From: Patescibacteria group bacterium
GTDB lineage: Bacteria; Patescibacteriota; Minisyncoccia; Moranbacterales; UBA2206
NCBI GenBank assembly: GCA_022711335.1
Contig: JAKLFF010000001.1
Span: 40,260-104,259 of the forward strand
Length of the DNA stretch: 64,000 bases
Direction of reading: 5' to 3'
Below, piece after piece: positions 3,183-24,115 of this stretch. The notes beneath the pieces were generated by a model. It was not told where the DNA came from, searched no databases, and saw only the letters and a program-made list of their open reading frames with translations. Made by a program: the position numbers and the translations under genes. Every line of letters begins with the position of its first letter. Position 1 is the stretch's first letter.

Positions 3183-3187
3183 CTTTG

Positions 3188-3270
3188 TGCCGAAGGAGAG
3201 AGTCGAACTCTCATGGGATTTCTCCCGCACGATTTTGAGTCGTGTGCGTCTGCCATTCCGCCACTTCGGC
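3188..3270 (-). tRNA. tRNA-Leu (anticodon CAA), type II with long variable arm
   Basis: The reverse complement is GCCGAAGTGGCGGAATGGCAGACGCACACGACTCAAAATCGTGCGGGAGAAATCCCATGAGAGTTCGACTCTCTCCTTCGGCA. It has a 7-bp acceptor stem and an anticodon stem CACGA/TCGTG with loop CTCAAAA. The T-loop is TTCGA and the long variable arm is CGGGAGAAATCCC. CCA is not encoded. Confidence 0.85.
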
Positions 3271-3289
3271 TTGTTCAGTGTAAGTTATC

Positions 3290-3400
3290 TAAATATTTTC
3301 TTCCAATTATAACATAAACAAATATCATCTTTATGCGCGGTCGCCAGAGGCGACTAAATCTACCAATTCCGCTTTACCCGCCTCCGGCGGGCACTTCGGC
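3290..3400 (-). other. tRNA-Leu-like fragment (acceptor 5-prime half plus D-arm) interrupted by GC-rich hairpins; possible pseudo-tRNA or structured leader
   Basis: The minus strand reads GCCGAAGTG[CCCGCCGGAGGCGGG]TAAAGCGGAATTGGTAGA[TTTAGT]CGCCTCTGGCGAC. It shares GCCGAAGTG and the GCGGAATnGGnAGA D-arm with the intact tRNA-Leu 120 bp away. No anticodon or T arm follows. Confidence 0.3.
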
Positions 3401-3442
3401 TTTTTGTGCCTAGCCTGTTTTTATAGTACAATATACTTGATT

Positions 3443-4234
3443 ATGGCAAAAATAATATCTCTCGTCAACCAAAAAGGGGGAGTGGGAAAAACTACCTCGG
3501 CTATTAATTTAGCCACCTATCTCGCGGCGGCAGGAAGATTTGTGCTGCTTGTCGACCTTGATCCGCAGGGAAACGCTTCATCGGGATTGGGCATAAATCT
3601 TTCTAAATTGGAAAAAAATCTCTATCATTCTATGATAATTGGAGAGCATCCGTCCAAAATAATTCTTCGCACGGAAACTCTCGGCCATGACATAATTCCG
3701 GCTTCCCAGGATTTGGCCGGGGCGGGAATCGAACTTGTCCACATGGATAATCGCGAGTTTCGGCTGTATAATGTACTTAGAGAAATCAGGACCAATTACG
3801 ATTATATCATAATTGATTCACCGCCAAGCCTCGGACTTCTCACGATAAACGGACTGGTTGCCAGCGACGAGGTGATCATTCCGGTTCAAACTGAATATTT
3901 TGCTCTTGAAGGGCTTAGCCAGCTTTTAAATACTATCGATCTGGTCAAAGAAAATTTGCAGCCGGATCTGAAAATTATGGGCGCGCTTCTTACGATGTAT
4001 GACAAGAGAAATCGCCTGGCGCGGCAGGTGATAAAAGAAGTAAGGGATCATTTTCCGGGATTTGTTTTTGACTCTGTTGTTCCGAGATCGGTGCGCCTGG
4101 CGGAGGCACCAGGATTTGGAAAGTCAATTTTGGGATTTGACCAGTTTTCCAAAGGCGCTCGGGCGTACAAAAATCTAGCGAGAGAAATAATTGGGATGGA
4201 AAAGAAAAGCAGCAATAAAAGTTTTACAGTATAA
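3443..4234 (+). CDS. parA: Chromosome partitioning ATPase ParA/Soj
   Basis: MAKIISLVNQKGGVGKTT is the deviant Walker A motif. The start was moved to the ATG at 3443; the listed ORF starts at 3404. Confidence 0.9.
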   Translation: MAKIISLVNQKGGVGKTTSAINLATYLAAAGRFVLLVDLDPQGNASSGLGINLSKLEKNLYHSMIIGEHPSKIILRTETLGHDIIPASQDLAGAGIELVHMDNREFRLYNVLREIRTNYDYIIIDSPPSLGLLTINGLVASDEVIIPVQTEYFALEGLSQLLNTIDLVKENLQPDLKIMGALLTMYDKRNRLARQVIKEVRDHFPGFVFDSVVPRSVRLAEAPGFGKSILGFDQFSKGARAYKNLAREIIGMEKKSSNKSFTV

Positions 4235-4261
4235 AAAAATAAAAAATCCGAAGCACGAAAT

Positions 4262-4384
4262 CAGAAATTCGAAACAAATTCAAAATATTAAATTTGAAAT
4301 GGCTAAAACTGTTTTGAATTTTAAACATTTGAATTTGTATATTGTTTCGAATTTCGATATTCGAATTTCGAGTTTGATTAATTT
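4262..4384. repeat. AT-rich heptameric GAATTTN/TTCGAAA repeat array in the parA-parB spacer
   Basis: attcgaaacaaattcaaaatattaaatttgaaat...gtttcgaatttcgatattcgaatttcgag. The same motif family recurs at 6977..7105 and 21968..22105. Confidence 0.6.
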
Positions 4385-5398
4385 ATGGCTCAGAATTATG
4401 GATTAGGCCGGGGTCTTGCCTCGCTTATTCCCCAAAAACGCAAATCCGTCCCTTTTGGCGGATCGCAGCCGGGCGATGAAGCAGAAAAAAAAGTAGTCGA
4501 ACCAAAAGAAGATTTCAATTATTTCGGCGCTTCTGCGGCTCCTGGGAGCGTTGCTGCAGCCATTAAGGCCAATCCTGTTTCAACCGCGTCTCCTAAAAAT
4601 AGCGGCGCAGAGAAAGATAATGGCGCAGGAAATGAAATTCGGGAAGTGGAAATGATAAAAATAGTTCCCAATCCCCACCAGCCAAGGCTGAGTTTTAATG
4701 ATGAAAAACTCGAAGAACTTGCTGGCTCCATCAAAGAGCATGGGATTATCCAGCCGATAACTGTTACAAAAAATAATGGCAATTTTGAAATTGTAACCGG
4801 AGAACGGCGTTTTCAGGCGGCAAAAATGGCTGGTCTTAAGACTGTTCCGGTGATAGTTCGGGATGCGAACGAAAAACAAAAACTGGAGTTGGCTATCACT
4901 GAAAATGTTCAGCGCCATGATCTTGACGCAATTGAAGAAGCCAAAGCCTATAAAAAGCTGATAGAAGAATTTGAAATGAATCAGGAGGAAGTAGCTAAAA
5001 AAATCGGCATAAGCCGCAGTGCGGTAGCCAACAAGATCAGGCTTCTTGGCCTCCCGGTGGAAATTCAAAAAGCACTGATTGCCGGCGATATAACGGAAGG
5101 ACACTGCAAACTGCTTTTGGCAATATCTAATCCGGAAAGACAGAAGGCTTTTTATGAAATGATTTTGAAAAACAAGCTGACCGTCAAGCAAACTGAAACA
5201 AAAACCAAAGAATTTTCAGTCAAGACCCACAAAAGAACATTGCATATTGATCCGGAAATAAAACAAATAGAAGACGAGCTTTCCCAAAAACTGGGTACTA
5301 AGGTAAAACTGACTAAATCAGGCGGGGGAGGAAGAATCATAGTAGAATATTATTCGCAGGAGGAATTGAATAATATTTTGGATAAAATTGCAAAATAA
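4385..5398 (+). CDS. parB: Chromosome partitioning protein ParB/Spo0J
   Basis: The GLGRGLASL N-terminus and the ParB box VTGERRFQAAKMAGLKTVPVIVRD are present, as is the HTH stretch KKIGISRSAVANKIRLLGLP. There is an expanded GC-rich N-terminal linker. Confidence 0.9.
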   Translation: MAQNYGLGRGLASLIPQKRKSVPFGGSQPGDEAEKKVVEPKEDFNYFGASAAPGSVAAAIKANPVSTASPKNSGAEKDNGAGNEIREVEMIKIVPNPHQPRLSFNDEKLEELAGSIKEHGIIQPITVTKNNGNFEIVTGERRFQAAKMAGLKTVPVIVRDANEKQKLELAITENVQRHDLDAIEEAKAYKKLIEEFEMNQEEVAKKIGISRSAVANKIRLLGLPVEIQKALIAGDITEGHCKLLLAISNPERQKAFYEMILKNKLTVKQTETKTKEFSVKTHKRTLHIDPEIKQIEDELSQKLGTKVKLTKSGGGGRIIVEYYSQEELNNILDKIAK

Positions 5399-6976: not shown

Positions 6977-7105
6977 TGAATTTAGAATTTAGAATTTCGA
7001 ATTTTGAATTGGAATCTGGAATATTGAATTTCGAGGTAATCTCGGCTGTTTTTTATTTTAAATTCTTAATTCCCATTCTAAATTCCAACTTCACAATTCA
7101 AAATT
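6977..7105. repeat. Inverted arrays of heptameric GAATTTN repeats flanking a ~60 bp core, intergenic between topA 3-prime end and rel 5-prime end
   Basis: The left arm is gaatttagaatttagaatttcgaattttgaattggaat. The right arm is ttctaaattccaacttcacaattcaaaattc, the reverse orientation. Confidence 0.6.
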
Positions 7106-9373
7106 CTATTTTATGTAGCTACATTCCTTGTTCGAACACCTGGCTTTTCCTTTAGCGGCAAACGTCATAAGGCTTTTGCACTTCGGGCATTTTTCTCCGG
7201 TCGGCTTATTCCAGAGGGCGAAATCGCAGTTTGGATAAGCATTACATCCGTAAAAAATTCTTCCCTTTTTGCTTTTTCGCTCGACTATTTCGCCTTTTTC
7301 ACATTTTGGACAGGTAATCCCGGTTTTATTTTCTATCTTCTTTATATTCTTACAATTGGGATAATTGGAACATCCCAGAAAGGCTCCAAACCGGCCTCGT
7401 TTTACGGCCATTTTAGCTCCGCAAAGTTCGCAAATTTCTCCGGCATGCTGTTCGTCTAATTTTTTTTCAGAATCTGTTTTTTCAGTATAGCGGCAGTTGG
7501 GATAATTTGAACAAGCGATGAATTTTCCAAAGCGGCCGAATTTCAAAACCAGGTCTCCGCCGCATTCAGGACAATTGCGGTCAAGTTTTTCCTGAAAAGA
7601 TTCCTTTTTGACTTCTTTGGTTTTGTTTTTCAGATGCTTGATGAAGGGATCATAAAAACTTTGGATGACTGGAACCCATTTTATTTTTCCTTCAGCTATT
7701 TCATCAAAATCTTCTTCTACCGTAGCGGTAAAGTTGATGTCGACAATTTCCGGGAAATGTTCGACGAGAAGATCATTGACGACGAGGCCGATTTCAAGGG
7801 GATAAAGCCTTTTCTCTTCGTTTTTTTCGATATATTTTCGGTCGAGTATAGTTGAAATAGTCGGAGCGTATGTAGATGGGCGGCCAATCCCATTTTCTTC
7901 AAGAACTTTGACCAAAGTCGCCTCAGAGTATCGGGGCGGCGGAACAGTTGTTTTTTCTTCAACATTTATGTCGGCTGTTTCCAGTTCGTCTCCGGTTTTG
8001 AGCGGAGGAAGGATATTTTCCCCGTTGGCTTTCCGGAAGGAGTTGACTTTCAAAAACCCGTCAAACTTTATGGTAGATCCGCTGGCGGAAAGAAGATAAT
8101 TATTTTTCGATTTTTTATTCTGGGCTGAAATAGAAACTTTGACCGAATCAAAAACCGCGGGTGCCATTTGCGAAGCAATCATTCTTTCCCAAATAAGCCT
8201 GTATAGCTTGTACTGTTCGTGTTCCAGATCCTTTTTTAGCTCATCCGGATGCTTATCGGGATAAGCTGGACGGATAGCCTCGTGCGCTTCCTGGGCGTTT
8301 TTTGATTTATTTTTAAAAAATCTGGGGTTTTCAAGCGCATACTCTTTTCCAAATTCTTTTTCTATCGTTTTTTTGGCAGAGAGAATGGATTCGAGCGAAA
8401 GATTGACGCTGTCGGTTCTCATATAGGTTATGAATCCCTGCTCATAAAGCTTCTGGGCGGTCATCATGGTTTTTTTAGCGGAGTAACCCAGATTATTTAT
8501 GGCGCTTTGCTGCAGAGTGGAAGTGGTGAAAGGAGGGCTGGGATGACGGAGTGTTTCTTTTTCGGAGATATCGATAATTTCAATTTTGGATTTCTCCAGG
8601 TCAGTGGCGGATTCTTTAGCGCTTTTCTCGTCAGAGAAAATAGTTCTTTTAGTTTTATAGTCTCCGGCGAAAAGCTTGATAGTTTTCGCTACTTCCGTCT
8701 TTTTTCCGTTCTTTTCTATGATTTCCGCTTTAAATTTTTCAAGATCGGATGCGCCGTTTTTTTTGAGTTCAACAGAAACGTTCCAATATTTTTCACTTTT
8801 GAATTTTTCAATTTCCCGCTCCCGTTCGCAAATGAAACGGAGGGCAACAGATTGCACTCGTCCGGCACTGAGACCGCGGCGGATTTTTTTCCAGAGAAAC
8901 GGAGAAAGCTTATATCCGACTAGCCGATCAAGAATCCTTCTGGCCTGCTGGGCGTCAACCAGGTCAATGTCAATCTTGCGCGGATTTTCAAGCGCCTTAG
9001 TTATGGCATTTTTGGTAATTTCATGGAAAACTATCCGTTCAAAATTCTTTTTTTTGGAAAGCCCTAAAGCTTCAACGAGGTGCCAGGAGATAGCTTCTCC
9101 TTCGCGGTCTTCATCGGTTGCAAGAATCACTTTTTCGGCTGAAGATGCCTGTTTTTTAAGCTCTTTTACTCGGTTTATAGCTTTCGGAGGAATTTCATAT
9201 TTCGGCTCAAAGTTGTTTTCAACATCAATCGCCAATTCTTTTTCCGGCAAATCACGAATGTGTCCGTAGGAAGATTTTACGGAAAAACCTTTTCCAAGAA
9301 ATTTGGAAATAGTTTTGGCTTTAGTTGGAGACTCAACAATGACTAACTTCATGAAGCATGGAACATATAGCAT
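7106..9373 (-). CDS. topA: DNA topoisomerase I with C-terminal zinc-ribbon repeats
   Basis: The Toprim start is MKLVIVESPTKAKTISKFLG, so the true start is probably the second Met near 9352. The active-site region YITYMRTDS is present. There are multiple C-terminal CxxC...CxxC zinc fingers. Confidence 0.9.
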   Translation of the reverse strand: MLYVPCFMKLVIVESPTKAKTISKFLGKGFSVKSSYGHIRDLPEKELAIDVENNFEPKYEIPPKAINRVKELKKQASSAEKVILATDEDREGEAISWHLVEALGLSKKKNFERIVFHEITKNAITKALENPRKIDIDLVDAQQARRILDRLVGYKLSPFLWKKIRRGLSAGRVQSVALRFICEREREIEKFKSEKYWNVSVELKKNGASDLEKFKAEIIEKNGKKTEVAKTIKLFAGDYKTKRTIFSDEKSAKESATDLEKSKIEIIDISEKETLRHPSPPFTTSTLQQSAINNLGYSAKKTMMTAQKLYEQGFITYMRTDSVNLSLESILSAKKTIEKEFGKEYALENPRFFKNKSKNAQEAHEAIRPAYPDKHPDELKKDLEHEQYKLYRLIWERMIASQMAPAVFDSVKVSISAQNKKSKNNYLLSASGSTIKFDGFLKVNSFRKANGENILPPLKTGDELETADINVEEKTTVPPPRYSEATLVKVLEENGIGRPSTYAPTISTILDRKYIEKNEEKRLYPLEIGLVVNDLLVEHFPEIVDINFTATVEEDFDEIAEGKIKWVPVIQSFYDPFIKHLKNKTKEVKKESFQEKLDRNCPECGGDLVLKFGRFGKFIACSNYPNCRYTEKTDSEKKLDEQHAGEICELCGAKMAVKRGRFGAFLGCSNYPNCKNIKKIENKTGITCPKCEKGEIVERKSKKGRIFYGCNAYPNCDFALWNKPTGEKCPKCKSLMTFAAKGKARCSNKECSYIK

Positions 9374-9412
9374 GTAACAAAAATAAAAATGTTATATGTT
9401 TTATGTTATGTG

Positions 9413-10528
9413 TTATATGATTATATAGTTCTGTCCTCCTATATTTTTCACCCAACCCTTGATTTCCATAATTGAAAGCGTTGAAGATACATCCGCTGTT
9501 CCCAGTCTAGAGAGTTTCGAAATATTGTCAATATGGATTGGATCGGAAGACAGAATGTCAAGAAGGATTTTTTCATTTTCTGAATCGGGATTTTTTTGAA
9601 TATTCTTTTTTGGTTTTTCACAAAGAGACAGATCAAATTCTTCCAAAACATCTTTAATTCCCAAAACCAACTTGGCGCCTCTTTTAATGAGATTATTGGT
9701 TCCGATAGATTGCGGAGAAAAGATTGGTCCCGGGACGGAAAAAACTTCTCGGTTTGAGTCCAGCGCCATCTGCGCTGTGATAAGCGCGCCGGATGTTTCT
9801 CCAGCTTCGACAACCAGCGTCCCTCGAGACAGGCCGGCGACAATGCGGTTTCGCGCTGGAAAAGTAAGCGGGCCGGCTTTGATTCCAACGGGATATTCAG
9901 AAAGAAGCAAGCCATTTTCTATAATTTCTCGAGACAAATTGAAATTATTTCTCGGATAAAGGCTCAAGTCATCCAATCCGTTTCCAAGGACGGCAATGGT
10001 TTTTCCGCCGGCTTCAAGCGCTCCGCGGTGAGCAAAAGTGTCAATTCCTATGGCCATGCCGCTTACGACTGTAAAGCCGGAATTAGCCAGTTCGCGGGAA
10101 AAGCTTTTGGCAATCTGCGATCCATAAGAAGTATATTTCCTGGATCCTACCACTGAAATAAGCGGGGCGGAATTAATAGCGTCTGTTTTTCCCTTTATAT
10201 ACAACAGGTAGGGGGGATTTGAGATTTCTTTGAGCAGGCTCGGATATTCAGGAAAATCAAAAGTTATCATGCTAATTTTCTCCTTTTCCATTTTTTCCCA
10301 TTCTTCATCGGGATTTATATTATTTCTTTCAAAAACAATTCTTTTTGCTAGTTTTTCTCCGATTTTAGCGAACAGCAGTTCACTAAAATCCGCCTTCCAA
10401 ACGGCTTCCGGATCAGAAAAATATCCCAGCATCATTTTCATCTTTTGCGTCCCGACGCCGGGGATGATATTCAAGGCATTAAGATATTTCATTTTTAAAA
10501 GATAACACAAGGAACGTCCTCTTGACAA
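9413..10528 (-). CDS. dprA: DNA processing protein DprA (Smf)
   Basis: The Rossmann-like DprA core reads SVVGSRKYTSYGSQIAKSFSRELANSGFTVVSGMAIGIDTFAHRGAL...LVVEAGETSGALITAQMAL. The likely start is an internal Met (MKYLNAL, near 10492). Confidence 0.85.
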   Translation of the reverse strand: MSRGRSLCYLLKMKYLNALNIIPGVGTQKMKMMLGYFSDPEAVWKADFSELLFAKIGEKLAKRIVFERNNINPDEEWEKMEKEKISMITFDFPEYPSLLKEISNPPYLLYIKGKTDAINSAPLISVVGSRKYTSYGSQIAKSFSRELANSGFTVVSGMAIGIDTFAHRGALEAGGKTIAVLGNGLDDLSLYPRNNFNLSREIIENGLLLSEYPVGIKAGPLTFPARNRIVAGLSRGTLVVEAGETSGALITAQMALDSNREVFSVPGPIFSPQSIGTNNLIKRGAKLVLGIKDVLEEFDLSLCEKPKKNIQKNPDSENEKILLDILSSDPIHIDNISKLSRLGTADVSSTLSIMEIKGWVKNIGGQNYIII

Positions 10529-10592
10529 ATTATCCCATTATGTGTTAGTATTTTGAATCACGAAACGCACAATAATAAAGGGAAATTTAAAT

Positions 10593-11660
10593 ATGGCTGA
10601 AAAAATCGAAAAAACCAGCGAAATTTTTGAAAAAAATGCTTCAGATAAGCTGAGTTTTTTGATCTTGGTTGATGAGTTAATTTCCAGTCTGCCAGTCCGT
10701 TCGCAGGAAATTTTGAAAGAAAGATTCGGGCTTTCTTCAAAAAAAGGGAAAACTCTGGAAAAAATAGGGAAGAAATATAGCATTACCAGGGAAAGAGTGC
10801 GCCAGATCATCACCGATGCCATAAAAAATATTTCAAAAAAAGCAGGGGAAGAAAATTTCTCCAGAGCGGAAAATAGGATCGTTTTTGCAATTAGGGAAAA
10901 TAATGGTATAATTAAAGAAGAAGATATTTTTTTGAACCTGGGCTCAGGCAGCTCGCAAGAGAAAAATGCCTTGGCTTTCTTTGTGCAATGTTCAAAAAAA
11001 ATATTGATTGTATTTGAAAAAGGAACGCTGGAAAAGTCCTGGGTCCTGTCAAAAGACGTCATAGCTTCAGTAAAAAAAGTTCATGAAAAAGCAAAAGATG
11101 TTTTCGGAAAGGAGCAAAAACCGCTCGGAGACGAAGAAGTTTTAGAAAAATTGTCAGAAGATTTTTCCGGTGCAGAAAAAGAGCAAATTCTGAACTTCCT
11201 TTCGATTTCGACCGAATTTGGAAAAAATGTGTTCGGAAAATGGGGAATAAAAAATTGGGATGAAATAAATCCCAAAGGAACGCGGGAGAAATTGCATCTG
11301 ATTTTGAAAGAAACCGGAAAGCCTTTGCACTTTACGGAGATTGCGTCGCTTATCGACAAGCATAAGTTGGGGAAAAAGAAAGCCCATCCGCAGACGGTCC
11401 ATAATGAGCTTATAAAAGATAGCCGATTTGTTCTTATCGGAAGAGGAATATACGCGCTTAGCGAGTGGGGATATGAAGAAGGGACCATAAAGGATGTCCT
11501 CAAGGATATTTTGGAAAAAAGCAAAAAACCCCTGCGGAAAGACGAAATTCTGGAGAAAGTCATGGAGGTGAGAAAGGTAAAGAAAACTACTGTGATGATA
11601 AATCTGAACAATAGCGAATTTTTTGAAAAGAAAGAGGATTTGTATTATATCAAAAAATAA
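10593..11660 (+). CDS. Sigma-70 region-4-like HTH domain protein fused to an unknown ~270 aa C-terminal domain
   Basis: The N-terminus EILKERFGLSSKKGKTLEKIGKKYSITRERVRQI matches the sigma70 region 4 signature. There are no region-2 motifs. It is the first gene of a same-strand cluster. Confidence 0.6.
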   Translation: MAEKIEKTSEIFEKNASDKLSFLILVDELISSLPVRSQEILKERFGLSSKKGKTLEKIGKKYSITRERVRQIITDAIKNISKKAGEENFSRAENRIVFAIRENNGIIKEEDIFLNLGSGSSQEKNALAFFVQCSKKILIVFEKGTLEKSWVLSKDVIASVKKVHEKAKDVFGKEQKPLGDEEVLEKLSEDFSGAEKEQILNFLSISTEFGKNVFGKWGIKNWDEINPKGTREKLHLILKETGKPLHFTEIASLIDKHKLGKKKAHPQTVHNELIKDSRFVLIGRGIYALSEWGYEEGTIKDVLKDILEKSKKPLRKDEILEKVMEVRKVKKTTVMINLNNSEFFEKKEDLYYIKK

Positions 11661-11763
11661 TTGCAAATCAGCCATATATTTTAAAAACAAAAAATAGTAC
11701 GCTTCGCCAAATAGTCCGCGGAAACGGACTGTCGCAACGCCGCTTTTTGGCGAGATTAAAAAG

Positions 11764-13029
11764 ATGAATTTAATCGATCAAAATTTTTTAGAAGCTGCAG
11801 GCAAGATGTTTTACCATACCTGGTGGATAGTTTTGCCTGCGGCTTTTTATTTTATCTTCAAGGAGCTTTGGAAGGATTTTGTGGCCTTTTTTTCCAAAAC
11901 CAGTTGGTATAACGTCAAAAAGTGGACGATGGTGGAAGTTATTCCTCCGCGCGAAATTGAAAAAGGCCCGAAAATGATGGAGTCTTTCTTTTCCGGAATC
12001 GCGGCGGTGCTTACAACTTACAATACTTTTGATGAATATTTGAAAGGCGCTTTCTGGCACGACCGTTTCGGATTGGAGCTGGTCGGAGAGGAGGGCAAAA
12101 TCCACTTTTATTTCAGATTTGAAACAAAACACCGGAATATGATAGAAGCGCAAATTTATGCGCAGTACCCGGATGCTGAGATTATTGAAGTCGAAGACTA
12201 TTACCAGCGCTTTCCGAAAGTTGTTCCAAACAAGAATTGGGATCTTTGGGGAACGGATATGGAATTTACGGCTCCTAATATTTATCCGATAAAAACTTAT
12301 GATAAATTCGAAGAGTCCGTGACGGGAGAAATGATTGATCCAATGGCGGCGATGTGTGAAGTTTTGGGAACTTTGGGGCCGGGGCAGCACATCTGGCTTC
12401 AATATATTCTTCAGCCGCTTCCCGAGCCTTGGAAAAAAGCGAAGTCTCAGCAGCAGATTCTTGATAAGCTGACCGGGCGGGAAAAAACTGATTCGGCCGG
12501 AGCACTGGGGCATCTGGGCGAAGTGTTTTCCAACATTTTTAGCGGGATGTTCGGGGCAGTCGAATTTAAAAAAACGGAAAAAAAAGAGCAGGCGCCTCTG
12601 GAATTCCGCCTTACTCCCGTTGAAAAGGATGTTTTAAAAGCGGTGGAAGAAAAACTGGGAAAGAATGTGTTTTTAAGCAAAGTAAGAATGATAGTTCTCG
12701 CAAAAAGAGAAAATTTTGAAAAATCTAAAATATCCGCTTTTATGGGGACAATAAAACAGTTCAGCGATATCAATATGAACCAGATCAAGCCGGAAGACAT
12801 TACCAAGACCTATGGAAAAATTTTTTTCATCAAAAGAATGGAAGCTTTTCGAAAAAGGAAAATATGGGCGAGATACAAAACTAGAAACATGGACGGTCCG
12901 AAAATTGTTTTATCAACGAAAGAATTAGCCTCTCTTTTCCATTTTCCGGATATGGGAGTGAAGTCTCCGGCTGTGCCGAGAACAGCTTCGAAGCTTGGCA
13001 GTGCGCCGTCGAATCTGCCGATTCAATAA
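11764..13029 (+). CDS. Hypothetical protein with one N-terminal TM helix
   Basis: The 421 aa ORF has a hydrophobic segment FYHTWWIVLPAAFYFIF. It lies directly upstream of the P-loop ATPase gene and I recognise no family signature. Confidence 0.55.
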   Translation: MNLIDQNFLEAAGKMFYHTWWIVLPAAFYFIFKELWKDFVAFFSKTSWYNVKKWTMVEVIPPREIEKGPKMMESFFSGIAAVLTTYNTFDEYLKGAFWHDRFGLELVGEEGKIHFYFRFETKHRNMIEAQIYAQYPDAEIIEVEDYYQRFPKVVPNKNWDLWGTDMEFTAPNIYPIKTYDKFEESVTGEMIDPMAAMCEVLGTLGPGQHIWLQYILQPLPEPWKKAKSQQQILDKLTGREKTDSAGALGHLGEVFSNIFSGMFGAVEFKKTEKKEQAPLEFRLTPVEKDVLKAVEEKLGKNVFLSKVRMIVLAKRENFEKSKISAFMGTIKQFSDINMNQIKPEDITKTYGKIFFIKRMEAFRKRKIWARYKTRNMDGPKIVLSTKELASLFHFPDMGVKSPAVPRTASKLGSAPSNLPIQ

Positions 13030-13136
13030 TTTGTAAATTATTTTTCATTCTGAACAAATTGAAGAATCCTGCGCATAATATGCATTATAACGGGATCCTT
13101 CTCCGTCAACTGGCGGATCAGGATGATTGACATTTT

Positions 13137-15143
13137 ATGTCAATCAATTTTTTTGCCAAAACCAATTTCAGAAACCAGGAAAGGATTTTCGGAATCAAAG
13201 AAGACGATCGCCGCCGCCATATGTATGTGATTGGAAAAACTGGAATGGGAAAATCCAATTTATTGGAAAATATGGCAATCCAGGATATACGGGCGGGAAA
13301 AGGCGTCTGCGTAGTTGATCCTCACGGGGAATTTGCGGAAAAAATGATGCGGGCGATTCCGGCAGATCGGATAAACGACGTTGTTTATTTTAATCCGGCT
13401 GATCGCGAATTTCCGGTGGCTTTCAATATTTTGGAAGCGGTGGACGAGGACAAAAAAAACCTGATTGCGAGCGGAATGATGGGAGTTTTCAAGAAAATCT
13501 GGCCGGATGTTTGGAGCCCTAGAATGGAATATATTCTCAACAACATGATTTTGGCGCTTCTTGATTATCCCGGATCAACGATGCTTGGAGTAAACCGGAT
13601 GATGTTCGATAAGGATTTCAGAAAACGTGTTTATCCGAAAATAAAAGATCCAGTCGTGAAATCTTTTTGGATCAATGAATTCGATCAGTGGGATGACAAA
13701 TTCCGAAAGGAAGCCGTAGCGGCTATTCAAAACAAAGTTGGGCAGTTCCTTTCTTCTTCCGTGATCCGCCACATTGTCGGCCAGCCGAAATCAACGATTG
13801 ACATGCGGGAAATTATGGACAATGAAAAAATTCTCATTGTTAATGTTTCAAAAGGCCGGATCGGGGAGGATGCCATGCGCCTTTTGGGAGGAATGATCGT
13901 GACAAAGATCCAACTGGCGGCGATGGGAAGAGTGGAAGTTCCGGAGGAGCAAAGGAAAGACTTCTATCTTTATGTCGATGAATTCCAAAATTTTGCCACG
14001 GAATCTTTTGCCAATATTTTGTCTGAAGCCAGAAAATACAAGCTTTGCCTTGTTTTAGCCCATCAATACATAAATCAGCTGATTTTTGACGGAAATTCCA
14101 CTGTTCGGGACGCGATATTTGGAAATGTCGGAACCATAGTGGCTTTTCGGGTTGGAGCGGAAGATGCGGAGCATCTGGAAAAGGAATTTGAGCCGGTTTT
14201 TATGATGAACGATTTGGTGAATCTCAATAAATATAATATTTATCTGAAGTTGATGATTGATGGAATTGCCGGGGATGCTTTTTCGGCTGCCTCCCTTCCT
14301 CCCATGGATATAGCTGATACGGCTGAAAATGAAGAGAAAGCCGTCCGGGTTTCGAGGGAAAGGTATGGAAAATCAAGGACGGAAATAGAGGAGAAAATTG
14401 CCCGCTGGAGCGGAATAATGGATATGGATGAGCCGAAAAAAAATAATGTTTTGCCCAGTAGCGGCCTAAATGGAGATAGGAGAAGCGATCAGTCTGCCAG
14501 ACGGGGAAATTTTAATAATTTTTCGCGCAGCCAAAATCAGAAGAGAATCTACGGCCGTGATGCTAACAAGCCCAAAAGTGTTTTTCAAATGCCGGTTTTG
14601 AAAAAAAAAGAAGAAATAAAAACAGTTAGGCTGTCTGAATCTGTTAATTTTCCTGAAAAAAGTATTTCCGAAAGCAAAAAAGGTGCAGGAAAAGTGGTTG
14701 AAAAAAACAAAAAAATACCGGAACAAAAAAATGATTTGCAAGAAAGTGTCGATATGTATGAGGCGGTCTGCAGTACGTGCGAAGAAAAAATTCAGGTTCC
14801 ATTCAAGCCTGATCCAAACCGGCCGACTTTTTGCAAAGAGTGTTTGAAGGATTATCAGAGATCGAGAGCCAGGGTGCAAAAGGAAAAAGAAGACGCAGTT
14901 TCATATAGAAGGAAAGAAGGAGGGGGCGATATTCGGAACGAAAAAAACCAACCGGAATTTCCAGAAAAAAAGCATTCACAGCCGGCTGCCTATGTCTCAA
15001 ATGAAAAGCCGATGAGTCTTTCCCAGATGTCCTATATTGCTCCAAAAAAATTCAAGCCGCAAAGAAAGCGGCCGGAAGTCAATTTGAATGAGGTGAGAAA
15101 GCTTATAAACAAAAGTTTAAACGGAAAAAATGCCAAAAATTAG
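13137..15143 (+). CDS. FtsK/HerA/TraD-superfamily P-loop ATPase (DUF87/AAA_10-like) with C-terminal zinc ribbon and basic tail
   Basis: Walker A is MYVIGKTGMGKSN followed by VVDPHGEF. Walker B is FYLYVDEFQNFA. The sensor is RKYKLCLVLAHQYINQL. The C-terminal zinc ribbon is CSTCEEKIQVPFKPDPNRPTFCKEC. Confidence 0.7.
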   Translation: MSINFFAKTNFRNQERIFGIKEDDRRRHMYVIGKTGMGKSNLLENMAIQDIRAGKGVCVVDPHGEFAEKMMRAIPADRINDVVYFNPADREFPVAFNILEAVDEDKKNLIASGMMGVFKKIWPDVWSPRMEYILNNMILALLDYPGSTMLGVNRMMFDKDFRKRVYPKIKDPVVKSFWINEFDQWDDKFRKEAVAAIQNKVGQFLSSSVIRHIVGQPKSTIDMREIMDNEKILIVNVSKGRIGEDAMRLLGGMIVTKIQLAAMGRVEVPEEQRKDFYLYVDEFQNFATESFANILSEARKYKLCLVLAHQYINQLIFDGNSTVRDAIFGNVGTIVAFRVGAEDAEHLEKEFEPVFMMNDLVNLNKYNIYLKLMIDGIAGDAFSAASLPPMDIADTAENEEKAVRVSRERYGKSRTEIEEKIARWSGIMDMDEPKKNNVLPSSGLNGDRRSDQSARRGNFNNFSRSQNQKRIYGRDANKPKSVFQMPVLKKKEEIKTVRLSESVNFPEKSISESKKGAGKVVEKNKKIPEQKNDLQESVDMYEAVCSTCEEKIQVPFKPDPNRPTFCKECLKDYQRSRARVQKEKEDAVSYRRKEGGGDIRNEKNQPEFPEKKHSQPAAYVSNEKPMSLSQMSYIAPKKFKPQRKRPEVNLNEVRKLINKSLNGKNAKN

Positions 15144-15354
15144 CACGGATTTGAATTTAGGCCAGAAAGTTTCTTCTCCGCTAGCTTTTATATTTTTGAT
15201 TATTTTAAGCTTTGTTGTGGCCTGGTATACGGTAAATGCAGGGGAGGGAATTTTGGATAACGCCAAAAAATCAAGCATAGTTAATATTGAAAAAAGGGGG
15301 AGCGAAAATGAAAAAACCAATCCTAAACCTAATCATTTAGAAAACGTAAAATAA
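15130..15354 (+). CDS. Small single-TM hypothetical protein
   Basis: 74 aa with the hydrophobic core LAFIFLIILSFVVAWY. It overlaps the ATPase stop by 14 nt. Confidence 0.35.
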   Translation: MPKISTDLNLGQKVSSPLAFIFLIILSFVVAWYTVNAGEGILDNAKKSSIVNIEKRGSENEKTNPKPNHLENVK

Positions 15355-15367
15355 TCAAACCAAAATT

Positions 15368-15649
15368 ATGTACACCAATGATGATTTAAAAAACCTGGAT
15401 TCAGAGGATAAAAAAAGAAAAAGAAATTCTTTGCAGATGGAAATTATTATGCTAGAATCAGAAATCAGCAAACTGGCAGCGGAAAAAAACAGTCTGGACG
15501 CCGAAATACGAAAAATGAAAATGGATGAAGAAAGATTTCGATTATCAGCGGACGAAAAGAAAAAAAGATTCGATTTTGTCGATCAAAGCATTTCAGAAAA
15601 GGAAGCGGAAGTGAAAAATGTCAGAAAGAAGCTTAATTTATTAATTTAA
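15368..15649 (+). CDS. Small coiled-coil hypothetical protein
   Basis: 93 aa, rich in K/E heptads. It lies in the same-strand cluster. Confidence 0.4.
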   Translation: MYTNDDLKNLDSEDKKRKRNSLQMEIIMLESEISKLAAEKNSLDAEIRKMKMDEERFRLSADEKKKRFDFVDQSISEKEAEVKNVRKKLNLLI

Positions 15650-15653
15650 AATA

Positions 15654-15911
15654 ATGGATATTAACATTCATTCTAATCTTCACAGATTTGTCGAAAAATT
15701 TCTAAAAGATAGGGGGGTTGCGATTGATCCCAAGAAAAAATCCGGGTTTGACAACAAAATAAAGTCCGTCGAAAGCGCTTTTGACAACCAGCTTTCCAAA
15801 GCTTTCGAAAATGCCGGAGAGAGCCTTAAAAATCTGAAAAAGGAAGACGGCTTTGAAATGGATTATGCGCACGCAAAAGATATTCTGAATGATGTTACTG
15901 TAAAAATGTAA
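15654..15911 (+). CDS. Small hypothetical protein
   Basis: 85 aa ORF spaced tightly before alaS. Confidence 0.4.
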   Translation: MDINIHSNLHRFVEKFLKDRGVAIDPKKKSGFDNKIKSVESAFDNQLSKAFENAGESLKNLKKEDGFEMDYAHAKDILNDVTVKM

Positions 15912-17831: not shown

Positions 17832-17876
17832 AACAGGGAGTGACGCAGAAATTATGCGTTTGCTTCCTGTTTTTTG
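17832..17876 (+). terminator. Rho-independent terminator downstream of alaS
   Basis: The nested hairpin aaacagggagtgacgcagaaattatgcgtttgcttcctg is followed by tttttt. Confidence 0.5.
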
Positions 17877-18008
17877 TCTGAAGCTGGTTTTTTGACAAAT
17901 TCAGTTAAACGTGCTAAAGATACAATACTGAAAAGTAAGGGAGTTTTGCAAAGGGCAGGACTTTCTTGTTTGAGCGAGGAGAAATTTTTTGAGAAAAGGA
18001 GGCAGAAA

Positions 18009-18626
18009 ATGGTGAGAAAGTTCTTTGCAGCGACGGTGTTTTTTTCATTTATGGTTTTGTTTGCAGGTGCGGGACCGGCGTTGGCGTTGCCAACTCTTTA
18101 TCTGGACACTTTGCCTTCACAAACGGCCGGGGGGTATTATGTAGGGTACTCCGGCGGGCATCTGGACGGGGGACCGCCAATGGGTTTCTTATGCAATGAC
18201 TTTGCACATACGTCGTATGTGCCGAGTCACTTTGAGGTCAACGTCAGCACAATCCCAAGCCTGACATTCGCCAGATTCGGAAACGATGCAGCGGCGATTT
18301 TAAAGTATCAGGAGGCGGCGTGGCTGATGCTGCAGATGGATACGCATCCGGATGATGTCGGGAGCATACAGTATGCCATTTGGAACGTGTTCGCTCCTTC
18401 GACGCCAGACTATGGGACGTCGAACGCATGGCTGGCGTCGGCCGCTGGCGCTAACATGTCATTGTATGATTTTTCGTCTGTTCGCATCTATACCGCGACA
18501 GGCGCAGAAGCCTGGAACCAGGAGTTCATGTCCGGACACGCTTCTGCCGTGCCGGAGCCCGCATCAATGTTGCTGCTTGGATCCGGGCTCCTCGGCCTGG
18601 TGGGGGTCAAGAGAAAGTTCCTTTAG
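18009..18626 (+). CDS. Secreted PEP-CTERM sorting-domain protein, compositionally foreign (GC-rich)
   Basis: The signal peptide is MVRKFFAATVFFSFMVLFAGAGPALA. The C-terminus VPEPASMLLLGSGLLGLVGVKRKFL is a PEP motif, a TM helix and a basic cluster. A strong SD aaggagg precedes the ATG at 18009. GC content is visibly much higher than in the flanking genes. Confidence 0.6.
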   Translation: MVRKFFAATVFFSFMVLFAGAGPALALPTLYLDTLPSQTAGGYYVGYSGGHLDGGPPMGFLCNDFAHTSYVPSHFEVNVSTIPSLTFARFGNDAAAILKYQEAAWLMLQMDTHPDDVGSIQYAIWNVFAPSTPDYGTSNAWLASAAGANMSLYDFSSVRIYTATGAEAWNQEFMSGHASAVPEPASMLLLGSGLLGLVGVKRKFL

Positions 18627-22105: not shown

Positions 22106-24115
22106 ATGCACCAGACATTCTATATCGATATAGATGAAGAAATCACTTCTATAGTCGAAAAATTGAGAAATTCAAAATCAGGAGAAGTTGTGCTCGTTGT
22201 TCCCAAGAGAGCGTTGCTTATCCAGAGCATCGTCAATCTTCGGCTTCTCAAAAAAGAAGCCGACTCGCTGAATGTTTCCTTGAGTATTGTTACTCAAGAC
22301 AATTTGGGGAAGGTTTTAGTTGAAAAAGCAGGCATATTTTACCAAGAAAGCCTGAAGGAAACAGAAAATGATGAGATAATAAGAAGTGAAAGCAGAATTG
22401 GCGAAAGCTATTTTGACAATCGCGACTATTCGAAAATAGGGGACAATCTTCATTCAGAGGAAGAAAAAATGGGAAAAATAGGTTCCGACAGTTATTTTGA
22501 CAGGAGCAGCAATCTTTCTTCTGAAATGGACAAGGATAAAAAAGCTGTTTTTAGAAACGTTTCTCCGGAACAGCCTTCCTCTTCCAGCCAGCCAAGTAGT
22601 GAGAAAATTTTAAATAAAGAATTGGTTTTGGGATTTGGAAATAATGCCAATTTAAAAAAAGGAGCTGTCAGCATAGACTCCTCGCTGTCTTCTTATCAAA
22701 TGCATCCAAGTCAAGCAGGTTTGCCGCAAGCGCCTGTGCAGGCGGCCAGAAATAATCCCCCGTCTGTTTCTAGGCCTTCCGAATTATTTCCTCGACCAAT
22801 AGAAGGCGTACGGGGAAATGCTTATGCTGGCCGGTCGGGAGACAGAAAAATAGATAATTTTTTCCAACATGGAAATTATTCTGTTCCGGCAGAAGAAAGC
22901 AAAAACGGTTTCAAGAACGCCAGCCTTTCTAAGAAAACATTTAAAGTTTTTTGGATTTTCGGGCTGATTCTTATTTTGCTTGTTTTGGCAGCGGCTGCTT
23001 ATTTCATAGTGCCCAAAGCAGATGTTGTCATTACTGCGAAGGGGACTCAAAAGGCTCAGGAAGCAGAAGTGAAAGCTGACGCTAAAATTGAAACAGTGAA
23101 TTATGAGGAAAAAGTTATTCCAGCAGAGGCAGTTTCAACTGTTGTAACGGCTTCGAAAAGCGTAATTCCCAGTGGAAACAAAGGGGCATCGAGTGGAAAA
23201 AAGGCCAGAGGGACGATCACTATATATAATGAGTTTAGTTCAGCCAGCCAGTCTCTTGTAGCGACGACGCGCTTTCAATCGGAAGATGGAAAAATATTCA
23301 GGCTGGAAAAGGGGGTTACTGTTCCTGGAACGTCAAAAGAAGGCGGGGAAACTAAAGCCGGAACAATCGAAGTGGAAGTAGCGGCAGATGAATCCGGAGA
23401 ATCCTATAATATCAGCCCTTCAAAATTTACTATTCCTGGATTTAAAGATAGCGGAAACGGAAAATACGAAAAGATTTACGCCAAATCAGAAAAAGCGATG
23501 TCTGGCGGAGGAAGCGAAAATAGCTCTTCGGAGGGAGGAAATAAAAAAATAACGGAAGCGGATATAGCCGGAGCAAAAAGCAAAATTTTATCGGATCTTC
23601 AAACCCAGGTAAGGAATAAAATCGAAGAATCGGCTGGAGAGGGAATGGTCGTTTTGGATGATGCCATCAATAGCGAGGAAGCGGTTTATACTCTTTCAAA
23701 TTCAGCTGGAGAAGCAGTCGAAAAATTCGAAATCAAAGCGCAAATGAAAGTAAACGCGCTGGTTTTCAAAAAATCTGACTTGGAAAATGTCGTAGGAAAA
23801 ATTGCCGCTAATTCAGGAAACGGAAAAACTAGCCTGGAAGGAAGTTCAATGGATATTTCTTATGGCAAGGCAGATGTTGATTTTAAGGCCGAAACTGTTC
23901 TAATTAAAGCAATCGGAACGATTAAAAACGGCTCAGACATTGATTTGGAAAATATCAAGAAGGAAATTTTAGGAAAAACAAATGAAGAATTGGAAACATA
24001 TTTGGGTGCTTATCCGAACATAGAAAAAGTGGATGTAACCTATTGGCCGCCGTTTCTAAATGGAAAAATTCCCCTTTATGAGAAACGGGTCAATGTGGCG
24101 GTAGAAGTCGAATAA
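22106..24115 (+). CDS. Hypothetical bitopic membrane protein (cytoplasmic N-domain, Ser/Pro-rich linker, single TM, large extracytoplasmic domain)
   Basis: 669 aa with the TM segment FWIFGLILILLVLAAAAYFIV near residue 290. I recognise no family motif. Confidence 0.55.
   Translation: MHQTFYIDIDEEITSIVEKLRNSKSGEVVLVVPKRALLIQSIVNLRLLKKEADSLNVSLSIVTQDNLGKVLVEKAGIFYQESLKETENDEIIRSESRIGESYFDNRDYSKIGDNLHSEEEKMGKIGSDSYFDRSSNLSSEMDKDKKAVFRNVSPEQPSSSSQPSSEKILNKELVLGFGNNANLKKGAVSIDSSLSSYQMHPSQAGLPQAPVQAARNNPPSVSRPSELFPRPIEGVRGNAYAGRSGDRKIDNFFQHGNYSVPAEESKNGFKNASLSKKTFKVFWIFGLILILLVLAAAAYFIVPKADVVITAKGTQKAQEAEVKADAKIETVNYEEKVIPAEAVSTVVTASKSVIPSGNKGASSGKKARGTITIYNEFSSASQSLVATTRFQSEDGKIFRLEKGVTVPGTSKEGGETKAGTIEVEVAADESGESYNISPSKFTIPGFKDSGNGKYEKIYAKSEKAMSGGGSENSSSEGGNKKITEADIAGAKSKILSDLQTQVRNKIEESAGEGMVVLDDAINSEEAVYTLSNSAGEAVEKFEIKAQMKVNALVFKKSDLENVVGKIAANSGNGKTSLEGSSMDISYGKADVDFKAETVLIKAIGTIKNGSDIDLENIKKEILGKTNEELETYLGAYPNIEKVDVTYWPPFLNGKIPLYEKRVNVAVEVE

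Follow-up and report, generated by a model that had tools for sequence, protein, structure and literature searches.

A candidate membrane-docked nucleic-acid translocase of Patescibacteria, encoded here as a split VirB4-/VirD4-like ATPase beside a sigma4-HARE protein

This study addressed the question of what is encoded by six closely spaced ORFs in a core chromosome region of Candidatus Moranbacteria, within a window (the whole stretch of DNA analysed) of 64,000 nucleotides. The six ORFs follow one another at spacings of 103, 107, -14, 13 and 4 nt, with 18 nt more to alaS. The flanks are housekeeping genes, the composition is uniform, and parAB, relA, topA, alaS, tyrS, ribosomal proteins and rpoA are among the chromosomal neighbours. 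A previous interpretation of the letters and translations only (hereafter the sequence-only reading) had located the six same-strand ORFs correctly, and had taken them as one lineage-specific operon that might serve DNA translocation or secretion, a function that we would likewise infer. Our analysis points to a smaller and far more widespread unit, in which genes 2 and 3 encode the halves of one Patescibacteria-wide ATPase, acting, with a probability of roughly 0.55, as a membrane-docked nucleic-acid translocase apart from the canonical T4SS clusters. The features are collected in Table 1.

Table 1. Coordinates of the genes, motifs and candidate signals at the locus (positions in the window).
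Feature	Position (nt)	Strand	Evidence or remark
Sigma-70-type promoter-like site, TTGACA-18-TAGTAT with TG, 5' of gene 1	10522..10551	+	consensus match only
Gene 1, 355 aa; sigma-70 region 4 HTH, then HARE-HTH and other winged helices	10593..11660	+	Pfam
Gene 2, 421 aa; DUF8128 (PF26449), N-terminal TM helix and cytoplasmic alpha/beta region	11764..13029	+	
Sole hydrophobic helix of gene 2, residues 16-32	11809..11859	+	
10-bp hairpin, 3' arm starting with the ATPase start codon	13124..13146	+	MFE -19.3 kcal/mol, z -3.2
Gene 3, 668 aa; VirD4/TrwB-type nucleotide-binding domain (residues 1 to ~430), then basic low-complexity tail	13137..15143	+	
Walker A of gene 3, GKTGMGKS, residues 33-40	13233..13256	+	
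DPHGE motif of gene 3, residues 61-65		+	
Walker B of gene 3, YVDEFQNF, residues 279-286	13971..13994	+	
LVLAHQ motif of gene 3, residues 305-310	14049..14066	+	
Treble-clef zinc ribbon of gene 3, CxxC-x17-CxxC, residues 545-569	14769..14843	+	PF23477 2.4e-10, TIGR04272 9.3e-12
74 aa single-TM ORF, 14 nt overlap with the 3' end of the ATPase gene	15130..15354	+	lineage-restricted
93 aa coiled-coil ORF	15368..15649	+	weak coiled-coil matches, all below cut-off
85 aa ORF	15654..15911	+	singleton in clustering

Concerning the regulatory signals, the site upstream of gene 1 is a possible operon promoter judging by its match to the consensus, promoter-like sites occurring at about twice the shuffle expectation across the AT-rich region around it. 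The hairpin at the ATPase start codon, comparable to hairpins in only two close relatives (L009 and L010), is a possible element of translational control. Since alaS lies 18 nt downstream and no terminator-like site was found in this gap, transcription may run on.

The comparison of 80 related loci, all from other species, with the near-identical contigs L001-L003 treated separately, demonstrated that only genes 1-3 are conserved together, being present in 71, 80 and 68 loci, respectively. The gene 1 > gene 2 > gene 3 order is kept in about 70 of the 80 loci, across Patescibacteria classes, with gene 1 directly upstream of DUF8128 in 71. Thus, the gene order holds in relatives for these three genes and not for six, and the module is not lineage-specific, as one scan recovered DUF8128 relatives from at least 585 species genomes, almost all of them carrying a Patescibacteria label. 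The module is near-universal in Patescibacteria and slowly evolving, and its ATPase core keeps 51-68% identity in most of the loci whose DUF8128 identity is 30-37%.

The remaining genes follow a different distribution. Homologues of the 74 aa ORF, which is possibly a local accessory membrane subunit, occur in three of the 80 loci, in close Moranbacteria only, and those of the 93 aa ORF in five, all of them close Moranbacteria, several with mnmA (tRNA 2-thiouridylase) between this ORF and the ATPase. No homologue of the 85 aa ORF was found among the 80 loci, no family matched the 74 aa or 85 aa ORF above its cut-off, and all three small ORFs are contained in the three near-identical contigs. 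The adjacency of dprA, to which the sequence-only reading drew attention, is real at this locus but incidental, since dprA is divergent from the genes and adjacent only in three close relatives; in most other classes, secD-secF stand upstream of the trio in its place. The small ORFs, dprA and topA are Moranbacteria-specific neighbours outside the module.

These data bear directly on the idea of a six-gene, lineage-specific DNA-uptake apparatus, with small subunits like those of the Ced system and a tie to DprA. The tight spacing, the TM ORF running over the ATPase stop codon, the neighbouring dprA and a weak match of the ATPase to CedD, the archaeal DNA-import ATPase, would agree with it. However, the small ORFs recur in 0-5 of the 80 loci, mnmA is inserted among them in sister Moranbacteria, the CedD match reaches 32.3 bits against a 600-bit cut-off and covers the P-loop region only, and the module has no part in what has been described of ComEC-dependent transformation in Saccharibacteria. 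The crenarchaeal Ced import system was accordingly rejected as a model, and an uptake apparatus of this kind, largely refuted by the neighbourhood comparison, is highly improbable.

The ATPase motifs and basic tail that the sequence-only reading had reported in gene 3 are present (the 239 aa tail holds 54 K+R and 32 D+E), and its assignment to the FtsK/HerA/TraD superfamily was borne out, while the spacing of the zinc ribbon had to be corrected from x19 to x17. In Pfam, gene 3 matches TrwB_AAD_bind (PF10412; 6.5e-15, 55 bits against a 20.5-bit cut-off), DUF87, TraG-D_C and T4SS-DNA_transf; TrwB_AAD_bind matches 25 of 25 diverse gene-3 homologues, and the catalytic residues are invariant among them. 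By hhalign, gene 3 aligns with R388 TrwB at a probability of 96.9% (E 1.6e-10, 269 columns) and with TrwK only in the P-loop (24 columns, probability 4.5%). A profile search of the PDB returned TrwB (5.5e-8) and DotL (8.7e-7), whereas AAA_10 (16.7 bits against 27.5) and TIGR00929 (17.9 against 643) stayed below their cut-offs on this protein.

No TM segment was found in gene 3, nor any hydrophobic stretch ahead of Walker A. The profile alignment spans TrwB residues 117-392, and the AlphaFold model places helices at residues 104-214; as the overall pLDDT of 50.7 makes the model unusable, the helical insert and the hexamer are taken from the profile alignment only. Gene 3 is presumably hexameric and presumably acts on nucleic acid. 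About 34 of 60 full-length gene-3 homologues have the zinc ribbon and about 40% lack it, and some fused homologues (see below) also carry an S1 domain (PF00575).

Gene 2 has the single N-terminal TM helix that had been noticed from its sequence, modelled as a helix spanning residues 6-43, and conserved C-terminal motifs, EELAxLxHFP and a terminal NLPI. A single TM helix per subunit offers no obvious DNA channel, and no channel partner for the module was found in this analysis. The local Pfam copy gave no match, whereas precomputed Pfam assigns PF26449 to the identical protein and to all 120 homologues among the matches listed. With the structure model of gene 2, the top Foldseek matches were 13 TrwK chains (E 1e-5 to 4e-4), and since no P-loop folds were among these top matches, the match is to the TrwK/VirB4 N-terminal domain. 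In BFVD, the VirB4-like protein gp155 of phage G also matches the DUF8128 fold. No similarity between DUF8128 and VirB4 was found at the sequence level, and the link depends on one medium-confidence model (pLDDT 73.5). As modelled, DUF8128 is folded like the N-terminal domain of VirB4. It resembles neither VirB6 nor TraL, the two identities that the sequence-only reading had suggested testing for the TM protein.

The relationship between genes 2 and 3 becomes apparent in the many lineages where both form one protein of 800-1200 aa. In a concatenated-profile search, about 90 of the best 120 protein clusters combined PF26449 and PF10412 in one protein of 788-1208 aa. One fused protein, P0392, was aligned and matches the products of genes 2 and 3 end to end, with a junction of 5 residues. 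Of three loci with a fusion that were examined, two likewise have a sigma4-HARE gene ahead of the fused one. Therefore, the window carries the split form of one ATPase, which combines a VirB4-like architecture with a VirD4-like motor, and gene 2 is its detached N-terminal half.

The nearest relatives outside Patescibacteria, grouped in PHROG 5156, are gp156 of Bacillus phage G and gp27.4 of SPO1, which have the same fused architecture, and the PHROG profile covers both the gene 2 and gene 3 products. The DUF8128 profile aligns with the N-terminus of gp156 at 98% probability (E 3e-13), the aligned part beginning past the TM helix, and the motor of gp156 is 29% identical to gene 3 (E 3e-41). The VirB4/TraG-like ATPase gp155 is a neighbour in phage G, and a Replic_Relax nickase adjoins gp27.4 in SPO1; no sigma4-HARE gene is among the annotated neighbours in either phage.

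The phage homologues could suggest a mobile-element or anti-phage defence set, such as the remains of a conjugative element or a system resembling MADS or Mza, as could the PADLOC matches of the ATPase to mad8 (1.1e-17) and of gene 1 region 4 to MzaA (6e-9). However, both matches are at domain level only (MzaA 56 bits against an 800-bit cut-off), the full sets (mad1-8; MzaA-E) are absent, and MADS and Mza were rejected as identities. Neither further components of these systems nor an integrase, a relaxase or repeats accompany the module, and the other four proteins have no relevant matches. The housekeeping flanks and uniform composition, the near-universal and slowly evolving occurrence in the phylum, and the lack of any module relative in 2.9 million viral contigs (IMG/VR) also argue against this explanation, to which we give almost no credence; they are the reverse of the patchy distribution among strains, or the placement in variable islands, that would be typical of such a set. 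The sequence-only reading was right that the genes match no standard layout, be it of a T4SS, a competence pilus, HerA-NurA or a defence system.

The HARE-HTH domain is present in RNA polymerase delta. In gene 1, residues ~26-81 (to 84) match Sigma70_r4 (3.4e-12), with the region 4 of SigA/RpoD as the nearest solved sequences, and the following part, which had been described as some 270 aa of unknown domain, matches PF05066 (1.2e-13, 51.7 bits) and contains HARE-HTH winged helices. As previously read, sigma region 2 is lacking: in Pfam and profile searches region 4 alone matches, and full-length sigma models all fall far below cut-off (e.g., RpoD 50 bits against 555). Without sigma regions 1-3, gene 1 cannot be a sigma factor. 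It joins an HTH module of sigma-70, the SigA/RpoD-like region 4, to the HARE-HTH of delta. Delta has a single N-terminal HARE-HTH and a long acidic C-terminal tail, whereas gene 1 has extra winged helices and no acidic tail, its last 60 aa holding 16 K+R and 11 D+E; an identity as delta (RpoE) was rejected, TIGR04567 scoring 33.8 bits, below the 42-bit cut-off. Within the module, the product of gene 1 is likely the partner that binds DNA and/or RNA polymerase.

Two published data sets very likely concern the same gene family. Among 3,035 Patescibacteria genomes, 2,918 were reported to contain T4CP homologues, with only 148 of 5,713 homologues near virB4 (Quinonero-Coronel et al. 2025, PMC12102498), and in the Saccharibacterium S. 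epibionticum the neighbouring genes SEML1_0293 and SEML1_0294 were both flagged as core and Patescibacteria-enriched (Wang et al. 2023, PMC10633639). SEML1_0293 encodes 921 aa with a T4CP domain from residue 402, and SEML1_0294 encodes Sigma70_r4 and HARE-HTH; from its length, domain positions and neighbour, SEML1_0293 appears orthologous to the fused family. In the parts consulted, neither article mentions an N-terminal domain or its VirB4-like fold, the occurrence of split and fused forms, or the linkage to sigma4-HARE. According to the published Tn-seq results (PMC10633639), SEML1_0294 is essential and the adjoining T4CP-like long gene SEML1_0293 is non-essential, so that gene 1 must do more than serve the ATPase.

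This essentiality would also fit a transcription or nucleoid module, in which gene 1 would be an essential delta- or sigma-4-like RNA polymerase factor and the ATPase, anchored in the membrane, would remodel or tether RNA polymerase or DNA there, for instance coupling transcription to Sec-dependent insertion. Both HTH modules of gene 1 are RNA-polymerase-associated, and fusions of this kind are predicted in the Pfam description of PF05066 to inhibit promoter binding. In 32 of 55 loci the genes immediately upstream are secD-secF, and secA lies still further upstream in eight. Nevertheless, the ATPase is dispensable in the organism where gene 1 is essential, the phage homologue lies beside a nickase and not beside transcription genes, and Moranbacteria lost the secDF linkage while keeping the trio. 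To our knowledge, no P-loop ATPase of the VirB4/VirD4 clade acts on RNA polymerase, and we regard such a module as quite unlikely.

Another explanation is that the ATPase is the missing T4CP of the Patescibacteria T4SS, encoded away from the virB4 cluster and feeding substrates into it. The motor is of the VirD4/TrwB type, the T4SS cluster of S. epibionticum has no recognisable coupling protein (PMC10633639), and T4CP genes often lie apart from virB4 (PMC12102498). On the other hand, the T4SS genes of S. epibionticum are reported as essential while SEML1_0293 is not, few homologues lie near virB4 (see the counts above), and no T4SS, relaxase or mating-pair-formation gene was found in the annotated window stretches or among those recurrent ORF clusters that were identified in the 80 loci. 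In place of the two TM helices with which T4CPs begin, the protein has its own VirB4-like N-terminal domain, and its constant partner is the sigma4-HARE protein and not a relaxase. Based on this evidence, a role as the missing T4CP is unlikely.

We therefore return to the translocase proposed at the outset, which would operate as follows. The TM helix would set the VirB4-like domain at the inner membrane face, with the N-terminus outside by the positive-inside rule, and this domain would dock the ATPase; in P0392, the one fusion that was aligned, the terminal NLPI directly adjoins the N-terminus of the ATPase half. The motor may oligomerise like TrwB as a hexamer and spend ATP on moving or remodelling nucleic acid. 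The helical insert and the zinc-ribbon or S1 tail would hold this nucleic acid, and the gene-1 protein might recruit or target it, the module acting independently of canonical T4SS gene clusters. The zinc ribbon and S1 tails, the HTH domains of gene 1 and the Replic_Relax nickase abutting SPO1 gp27.4 support a probable link with nucleic acid, as far as sequence features can indicate. Conserved synteny in these genomes, however, does not always reflect a joint function, as the constant neighbours secDF, mnmA and alaS show. A Sec-linked ATPase for protein export or membrane-protein handling, analogous to VirB4- or EssC-type secretion ATPases, is a further alternative, but the nucleic-acid-binding tails and the HTH partner are unfit for a protein substrate, no conserved candidate secreted substrates lie alongside in the 80 loci, and the similarity to EccE is weak; we consider it very unlikely.

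Among the known systems, the VirD4/TrwB T4CPs (PF10412, PF02534) share with gene 3 a homologous nucleotide-binding domain through Walker A, the helical-insert-aligned region, Walker B and the sensor. Unlike T4CPs, gene 3 has no N-terminal two-helix TM domain, as its anchor comes from a different kind of domain, DUF8128; this N-terminal partner, separate or fused, is VirB4-like, and gene 3 bears a zinc-ribbon or S1 tail; moreover, the module is chromosomal and near-universal, with no relaxase or mating-pair genes nearby. VirB4/TrwK, which is often fused to or bound by VirB3, appears to share its N-terminal domain fold with DUF8128, judging by the model. However, the motor of the module is not VirB4-type, as its alignment to TrwK and the AAA_10 score attest, and the window form is split into two polypeptides; no VirB3, VirB6 or VirB8 genes were found at the locus or in relatives. 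HerA(-NurA) was rejected, with a generic DUF87 core only (NF040819 14.9 bits against 970) and no NurA-like gene among the annotated neighbours. Membership in FtsK/SpoIIIE was also rejected, PF01580 matching one of 25 homologues at 2e-3 and not the window protein, and S. epibionticum has, in addition, a canonical, essential FtsK. Even so, the logic of the module is analogous to that of FtsK/SpoIIIE, namely a membrane anchor, a P-loop motor that belongs to the same superfamily and is presumably hexameric, and winged-helix modules for DNA recognition, which are here placed on a separate protein, the product of gene 1.

This analysis identified the ATPase of the locus as a split VirB4/VirD4 hybrid belonging to a three-gene, phylum-wide module, which consists of a sigma4-HARE protein, a DUF8128 protein and the ATPase (genes 1 to 3). 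The sequence-only reading had proposed a candidate operon of six genes specific to this lineage. All six plus-strand ORFs are real and were present at the coordinates it had listed, with successive gaps of 103, 107, -14, 13 and 4 nt and alaS 18 nt further on, whereas the scope of the proposal did not hold, and the six-gene system was rejected in favor of the three-gene module. Clustering of ORFs over 80 related loci from other species ruled out the three small ORFs as conserved subunits: the 74 aa ORF recurred in three and the 93 aa ORF in five close relatives, and none of the 80 loci held a counterpart of the 85 aa ORF. A link between dprA and the module was likewise ruled out, since no more than 3 of the 80 loci have dprA next to it, and dprA together with topA neighbors the module only in three close relatives. 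Proteins identical to the DUF8128 protein and the ATPase are recorded in Candidatus Moranbacteria metagenome bins.

Coordinates of the features discussed (window positions unless a fetched locus, L, is named)
Feature	Position	Content
Gene 1, sigma4-HARE	10593-11660 (+)	355 aa
Gene 2, DUF8128	11764-13029 (+)	421 aa
Gene 3, ATPase	13137-15143 (+)	668 aa
Hairpin	13124-13146 (+)	10 bp; MFE -19.3 kcal/mol; z -3.2
TM ORF	15130-15354 (+)	74 aa
Coiled-coil ORF	15368-15649 (+)	93 aa
Third small ORF	15654-15911 (+)	85 aa
Putative PEP-CTERM protein	17874-18626 (+)	250 aa
Protein after ftsA-like gene	22106-24115 (+)	669 aa
Upstream flank		radical-SAM enzyme, methyltransferase, parA, parB, relA/spoT, topA, dprA
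Downstream flank		alaS, tyrS, speD, ftsA-like gene, ribosomal proteins, rpoA, rmuC, prfA, glyA
secD/secF in related loci	1.1-3.5 kb upstream of DUF8128	L013-L060 and others
Two fused DUF8128+T4CP paralogues	L085 (GCA_004196255.1) 2692-5175 and 7001-9766	827 and 921 aa
Fused homologue with S1 domain	L086 4194-6995	Gracilibacteria
Bacillus phage G locus	L088 2220-6362	
Bacillus phage SPO1 locus	L089 3747-7284	

The flanking genes on both sides are housekeeping genes, the base composition is uniform across the window, and a tRNA-Leu was the sole Rfam match. A defence island or mobile element was ruled out by the genomic context and conservation. Two other proteins of the downstream region were observed. 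The 250 aa protein ends in a textbook PEP-CTERM sorting signal (…VPEPASMLLLGSGLLGLVGVKRKFL), and the called gene has a weak match to Pfam PF07589; exosortase-type sorting would be unexpected for a monoderm CPR bacterium. The 669 aa protein has no family assignment, and gave only weak matches to the GlxA beta-barrel (1.3e-4) and, over residues 364-446, to a phage baseplate-wedge PHROG (5e-7).

Concerning the ATPase, the motifs quoted in the sequence-only reading were correct, and its catalytic residues are invariant among homologues. The protein matches PF10412 (6.5e-15), and its profile retrieved TrwB (5.5e-8) and DotL (8.7e-7) from the PDB. In hhalign it aligned with R388 TrwB at 96.9% probability over 269 columns, and with TrwK, the VirB4 of R388, only at the P-loop; judged by these profiles, the motor is of the VirD4/TrwB type. 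No TM segment was found in it. The basic tail bears a zinc ribbon matching PF23477 and TIGR04272, with the spacing CxxC-x17-CxxC instead of the x19 first read. An AlphaFold2 model built with 30 close homologues reached a pLDDT of 50.7 and was left out of the fold search. A hairpin was also observed at the start of this gene, whose start codon opens its 3' arm; start-codon hairpins of other sequence were seen in the close relatives L009 and L010 and are absent from other lineages, and the structure may serve to control translation of the ATPase half in this lineage specifically.

The gene 2 protein is assigned to DUF8128 (PF26449) in precomputed Pfam, a family of 1,716 clusters at 50% identity (E up to 0.001) that is conserved over its whole length, including a C-terminal EELAxLxHFP and a terminal NLPI. 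Its AlphaFold model (pLDDT 73.5, pTM 0.70) shows one long N-terminal helix followed by alpha/beta domains. In Foldseek, 13 TrwK chains ranked first, the best being a partial chain of 457 residues, and a BFVD search also matched the N-terminal part of phage G gp155, a VirB4/TraG-type ATPase. No P-loop folds were among the top matches, and therefore the protein resembles the N-terminal domain of VirB4, the fold that its cytoplasmic part has as modeled. The similarity lies at the fold level only: a profile search of the PDB found no sequence link between DUF8128 and VirB4, and hhalign against R388 TrwK gave a probability of 0.2%.

The relation between the two proteins was revealed by a concatenated DUF8128 and ATPase-core profile searched against a 5.8-billion-protein collection. 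Among the best 120 clusters examined, about 90 were single proteins of 788-1208 aa carrying PF26449 and PF10412 together, under names that include Jacksonbacteria, Gracilibacteria and Patescibacteria. In one such homologue (P0392, 941 aa), residues 3-426 align with gene 2 and residues 432-848 with gene 3, and the junction is five residues immediately past NLPI. Therefore, the window holds a split version of one protein, and the fused form very probably runs from a TM anchor through a VirB4-like N-terminal domain to a VirD4-like motor. The fused gene lies downstream of a sigma4-HARE gene in two of the three fused loci examined. One locus (L085) carries two fused paralogues, one on either side of the sigma4-HARE gene, consistent with the published mean of about two T4CP-like (type IV coupling protein, VirD4/TrwB) genes per Patescibacteria genome. 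Some fused homologues (L086 and the proteins P0464, P0467 and P0472) carry an RNA-binding S1 domain (PF00575), which suggests that the S1 domain and the zinc ribbon may be interchangeable C-terminal nucleic-acid-binding modules.

When a single genome of each species was scanned with patterns from an 8-sequence alignment, at least 585 genomes proved to contain DUF8128 relatives, so that the module is phylum-wide and not lineage-specific. The 80 loci are labeled Moraniibacteriota, many Parcubacteria groups, Kerfeld-, Uhr- and Magasanikbacteria and 'Saccharibacteria'. Several loci with Patescibacteria-typical synteny (L018, L061, L068, L071, L074 among them) come from MAGs labeled Bathyarchaeia, Binatia, Acutalibacteraceae, Gammaproteobacteria or Bdellovibrionales; such odd labels, 'Saccharibacteria' included, probably reflect mis-binning of contigs or automatic mislabeling and not occurrence beyond the phylum. 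About 70 of the 80 loci preserve the gene order sigma4-HARE, DUF8128, ATPase, the exceptions being mostly at contig ends. In most of the loci where DUF8128 is 30-37% and alaS 38-64% identical, the ATPase core is 51-68% identical.

In 51 of the 80 loci, covering most non-Moranbacteria classes, the sigma4-HARE gene is immediately preceded on its own strand by secD and secF, which end less than 500 nt from it in 32 of the 55 loci whose upstream sequence is long enough; in eight loci secA is found still further upstream. Other recurrent neighbors in other classes are mnmA, efp and alaS. In the window, a divergent dprA-topA pair occupies the secD-secF place. In sister Moranbacteria (L004, L005, L008, L012, L030), a gene for the tRNA 2-thiouridylase MnmA (345-374 aa) lies downstream of the ATPase, in L004 and L005 between the ATPase and the 93 aa ORF; in the window the 74 aa TM ORF stands alone at this place, from which mnmA has been lost or moved.

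Gene 1 has sigma-70 region 4 (residues ~26-81, closest to that of SigA/RpoD) as its only sigma region, which confirmed the lack of region 2. The remainder, first described as an unknown domain, comprises a HARE-HTH (PF05066, 1.2e-13) and other winged helices; full-length sigma and delta models all scored far under the cut-off. Nothing relevant was found in the literature on this combination, and no paper mentioning DUF8128 or PF26449 was found. In S. epibionticum, SEML1_0294 (Sigma70_r4 and HARE-HTH, 349 aa) was essential at every time point (Wang et al. 2023, PMC10633639, Tables S1 and S2). The adjoining SEML1_0293 (921 aa, its T4CP domain beginning at residue 402) was called non-essential, with normalized Tn-seq reads falling about four-fold over passages (5817, 2940, 1372), and both genes were flagged as core and Patescibacteria-enriched (PMC10633639). 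From its length, domain position and neighbor, we infer membership of SEML1_0293 in the fused family. As the gene 1 homologue is essential while the ATPase homologue is not, gene 1 must have an additional role, which keeps alive the reading that the module is related to transcription.

The same difference in essentiality weakens the proposal that the ATPase is the coupling protein of a T4SS, as do the absence of linkage to T4SS genes and the VirB4-like domain that the ATPase brings with it. A previous survey of 3,035 Patescibacteria genomes detected VirD4-type homologues in 2,918 of them, 5,713 in total and no more than 148 near virB4, and stated that their exaptation 'cannot be ruled out' (Quinonero-Coronel et al. 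2025, PMC12102498). The components were thus partly noted already as 'orphan T4CPs'; no description of the architecture, of the partner or of the phage relatives seems to have been published. A replacement of FtsK was ruled out, as the FtsK of S. epibionticum is canonical and essential; the ComEC of this organism is non-essential (PMC10633639).

Concerning the mechanism, the helix of gene 2 would hold the VirB4-like domain to the membrane on its cytoplasmic side, with the N-terminus predicted outside by the positive-inside rule from the Lys-rich stretch after the helix. This domain would dock the motor, which may form a TrwB-like ring working on nucleic acid bound by the tail (zinc ribbon or S1) and by a helical insert, and the gene 1 protein would provide targeting through DNA or RNA polymerase. 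That the module functions as a nucleic-acid translocase is plausible at somewhat under even odds. We tentatively propose, with a probability of about 0.3, that it is a third, unrecognised branch of the VirB4/VirD4 superfamily, namely a DNA (or RNA) translocase that works on its own, docked at the membrane and served by a sigma-4/HARE-HTH adaptor for nucleic acid, and that is fixed in the core genome of nearly all Patescibacteria. If so, it would be a hallmark CPR machine to handle or exchange nucleic acid at the cell envelope.

A large part of bacterial diversity belongs to the Patescibacteria, and functional hypotheses exist for few of the genes that are both phylum-wide and phylum-enriched in them. 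Here, an abundant 'orphan T4CP' and a DUF become one defined machine with a TM anchor, a VirB4-like domain, a VirD4-like motor, a nucleic-acid-binding tail and a constant sigma-4/HARE-HTH partner. T4CP matches in these genomes call for caution before being taken as evidence of conjugation. The module is testable in the genetically tractable S. epibionticum, in which the likely fused gene is dispensable and the partner essential.

The hybrid architecture is also relevant to the divergence of VirB4 and VirD4, whose evolution the proposed branch, if real, could link, and its relatives would then have been taken up by large Bacillus phages. IMG/VR yielded no DUF8128 relative, and tblastn of DUF8128 against a phage collection returned nothing, whereas profile and fold methods did recover phage relatives. 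PHROG 5156, a profile of 824 positions with no assigned function, spans both proteins: its positions 78-357 correspond to gene 2 and 407-819 to gene 3 (E 2.5e-60 for the latter). Bacillus phage G gp156 (825 aa), which comes after gp155, matches the DUF8128 profile at 98% probability and the motor at E 3e-41. SPO1 gp27.4 (906 aa), a fused homologue but a weaker relative, overlaps gp27.3, a Replic_Relax-family protein annotated 'replication initiation by nicking', with a partition protein nearby. The two phage loci appear to represent an as yet uncharacterised module of large Bacillus phages, a T4SS-derived ATPase pair or a nickase unit.
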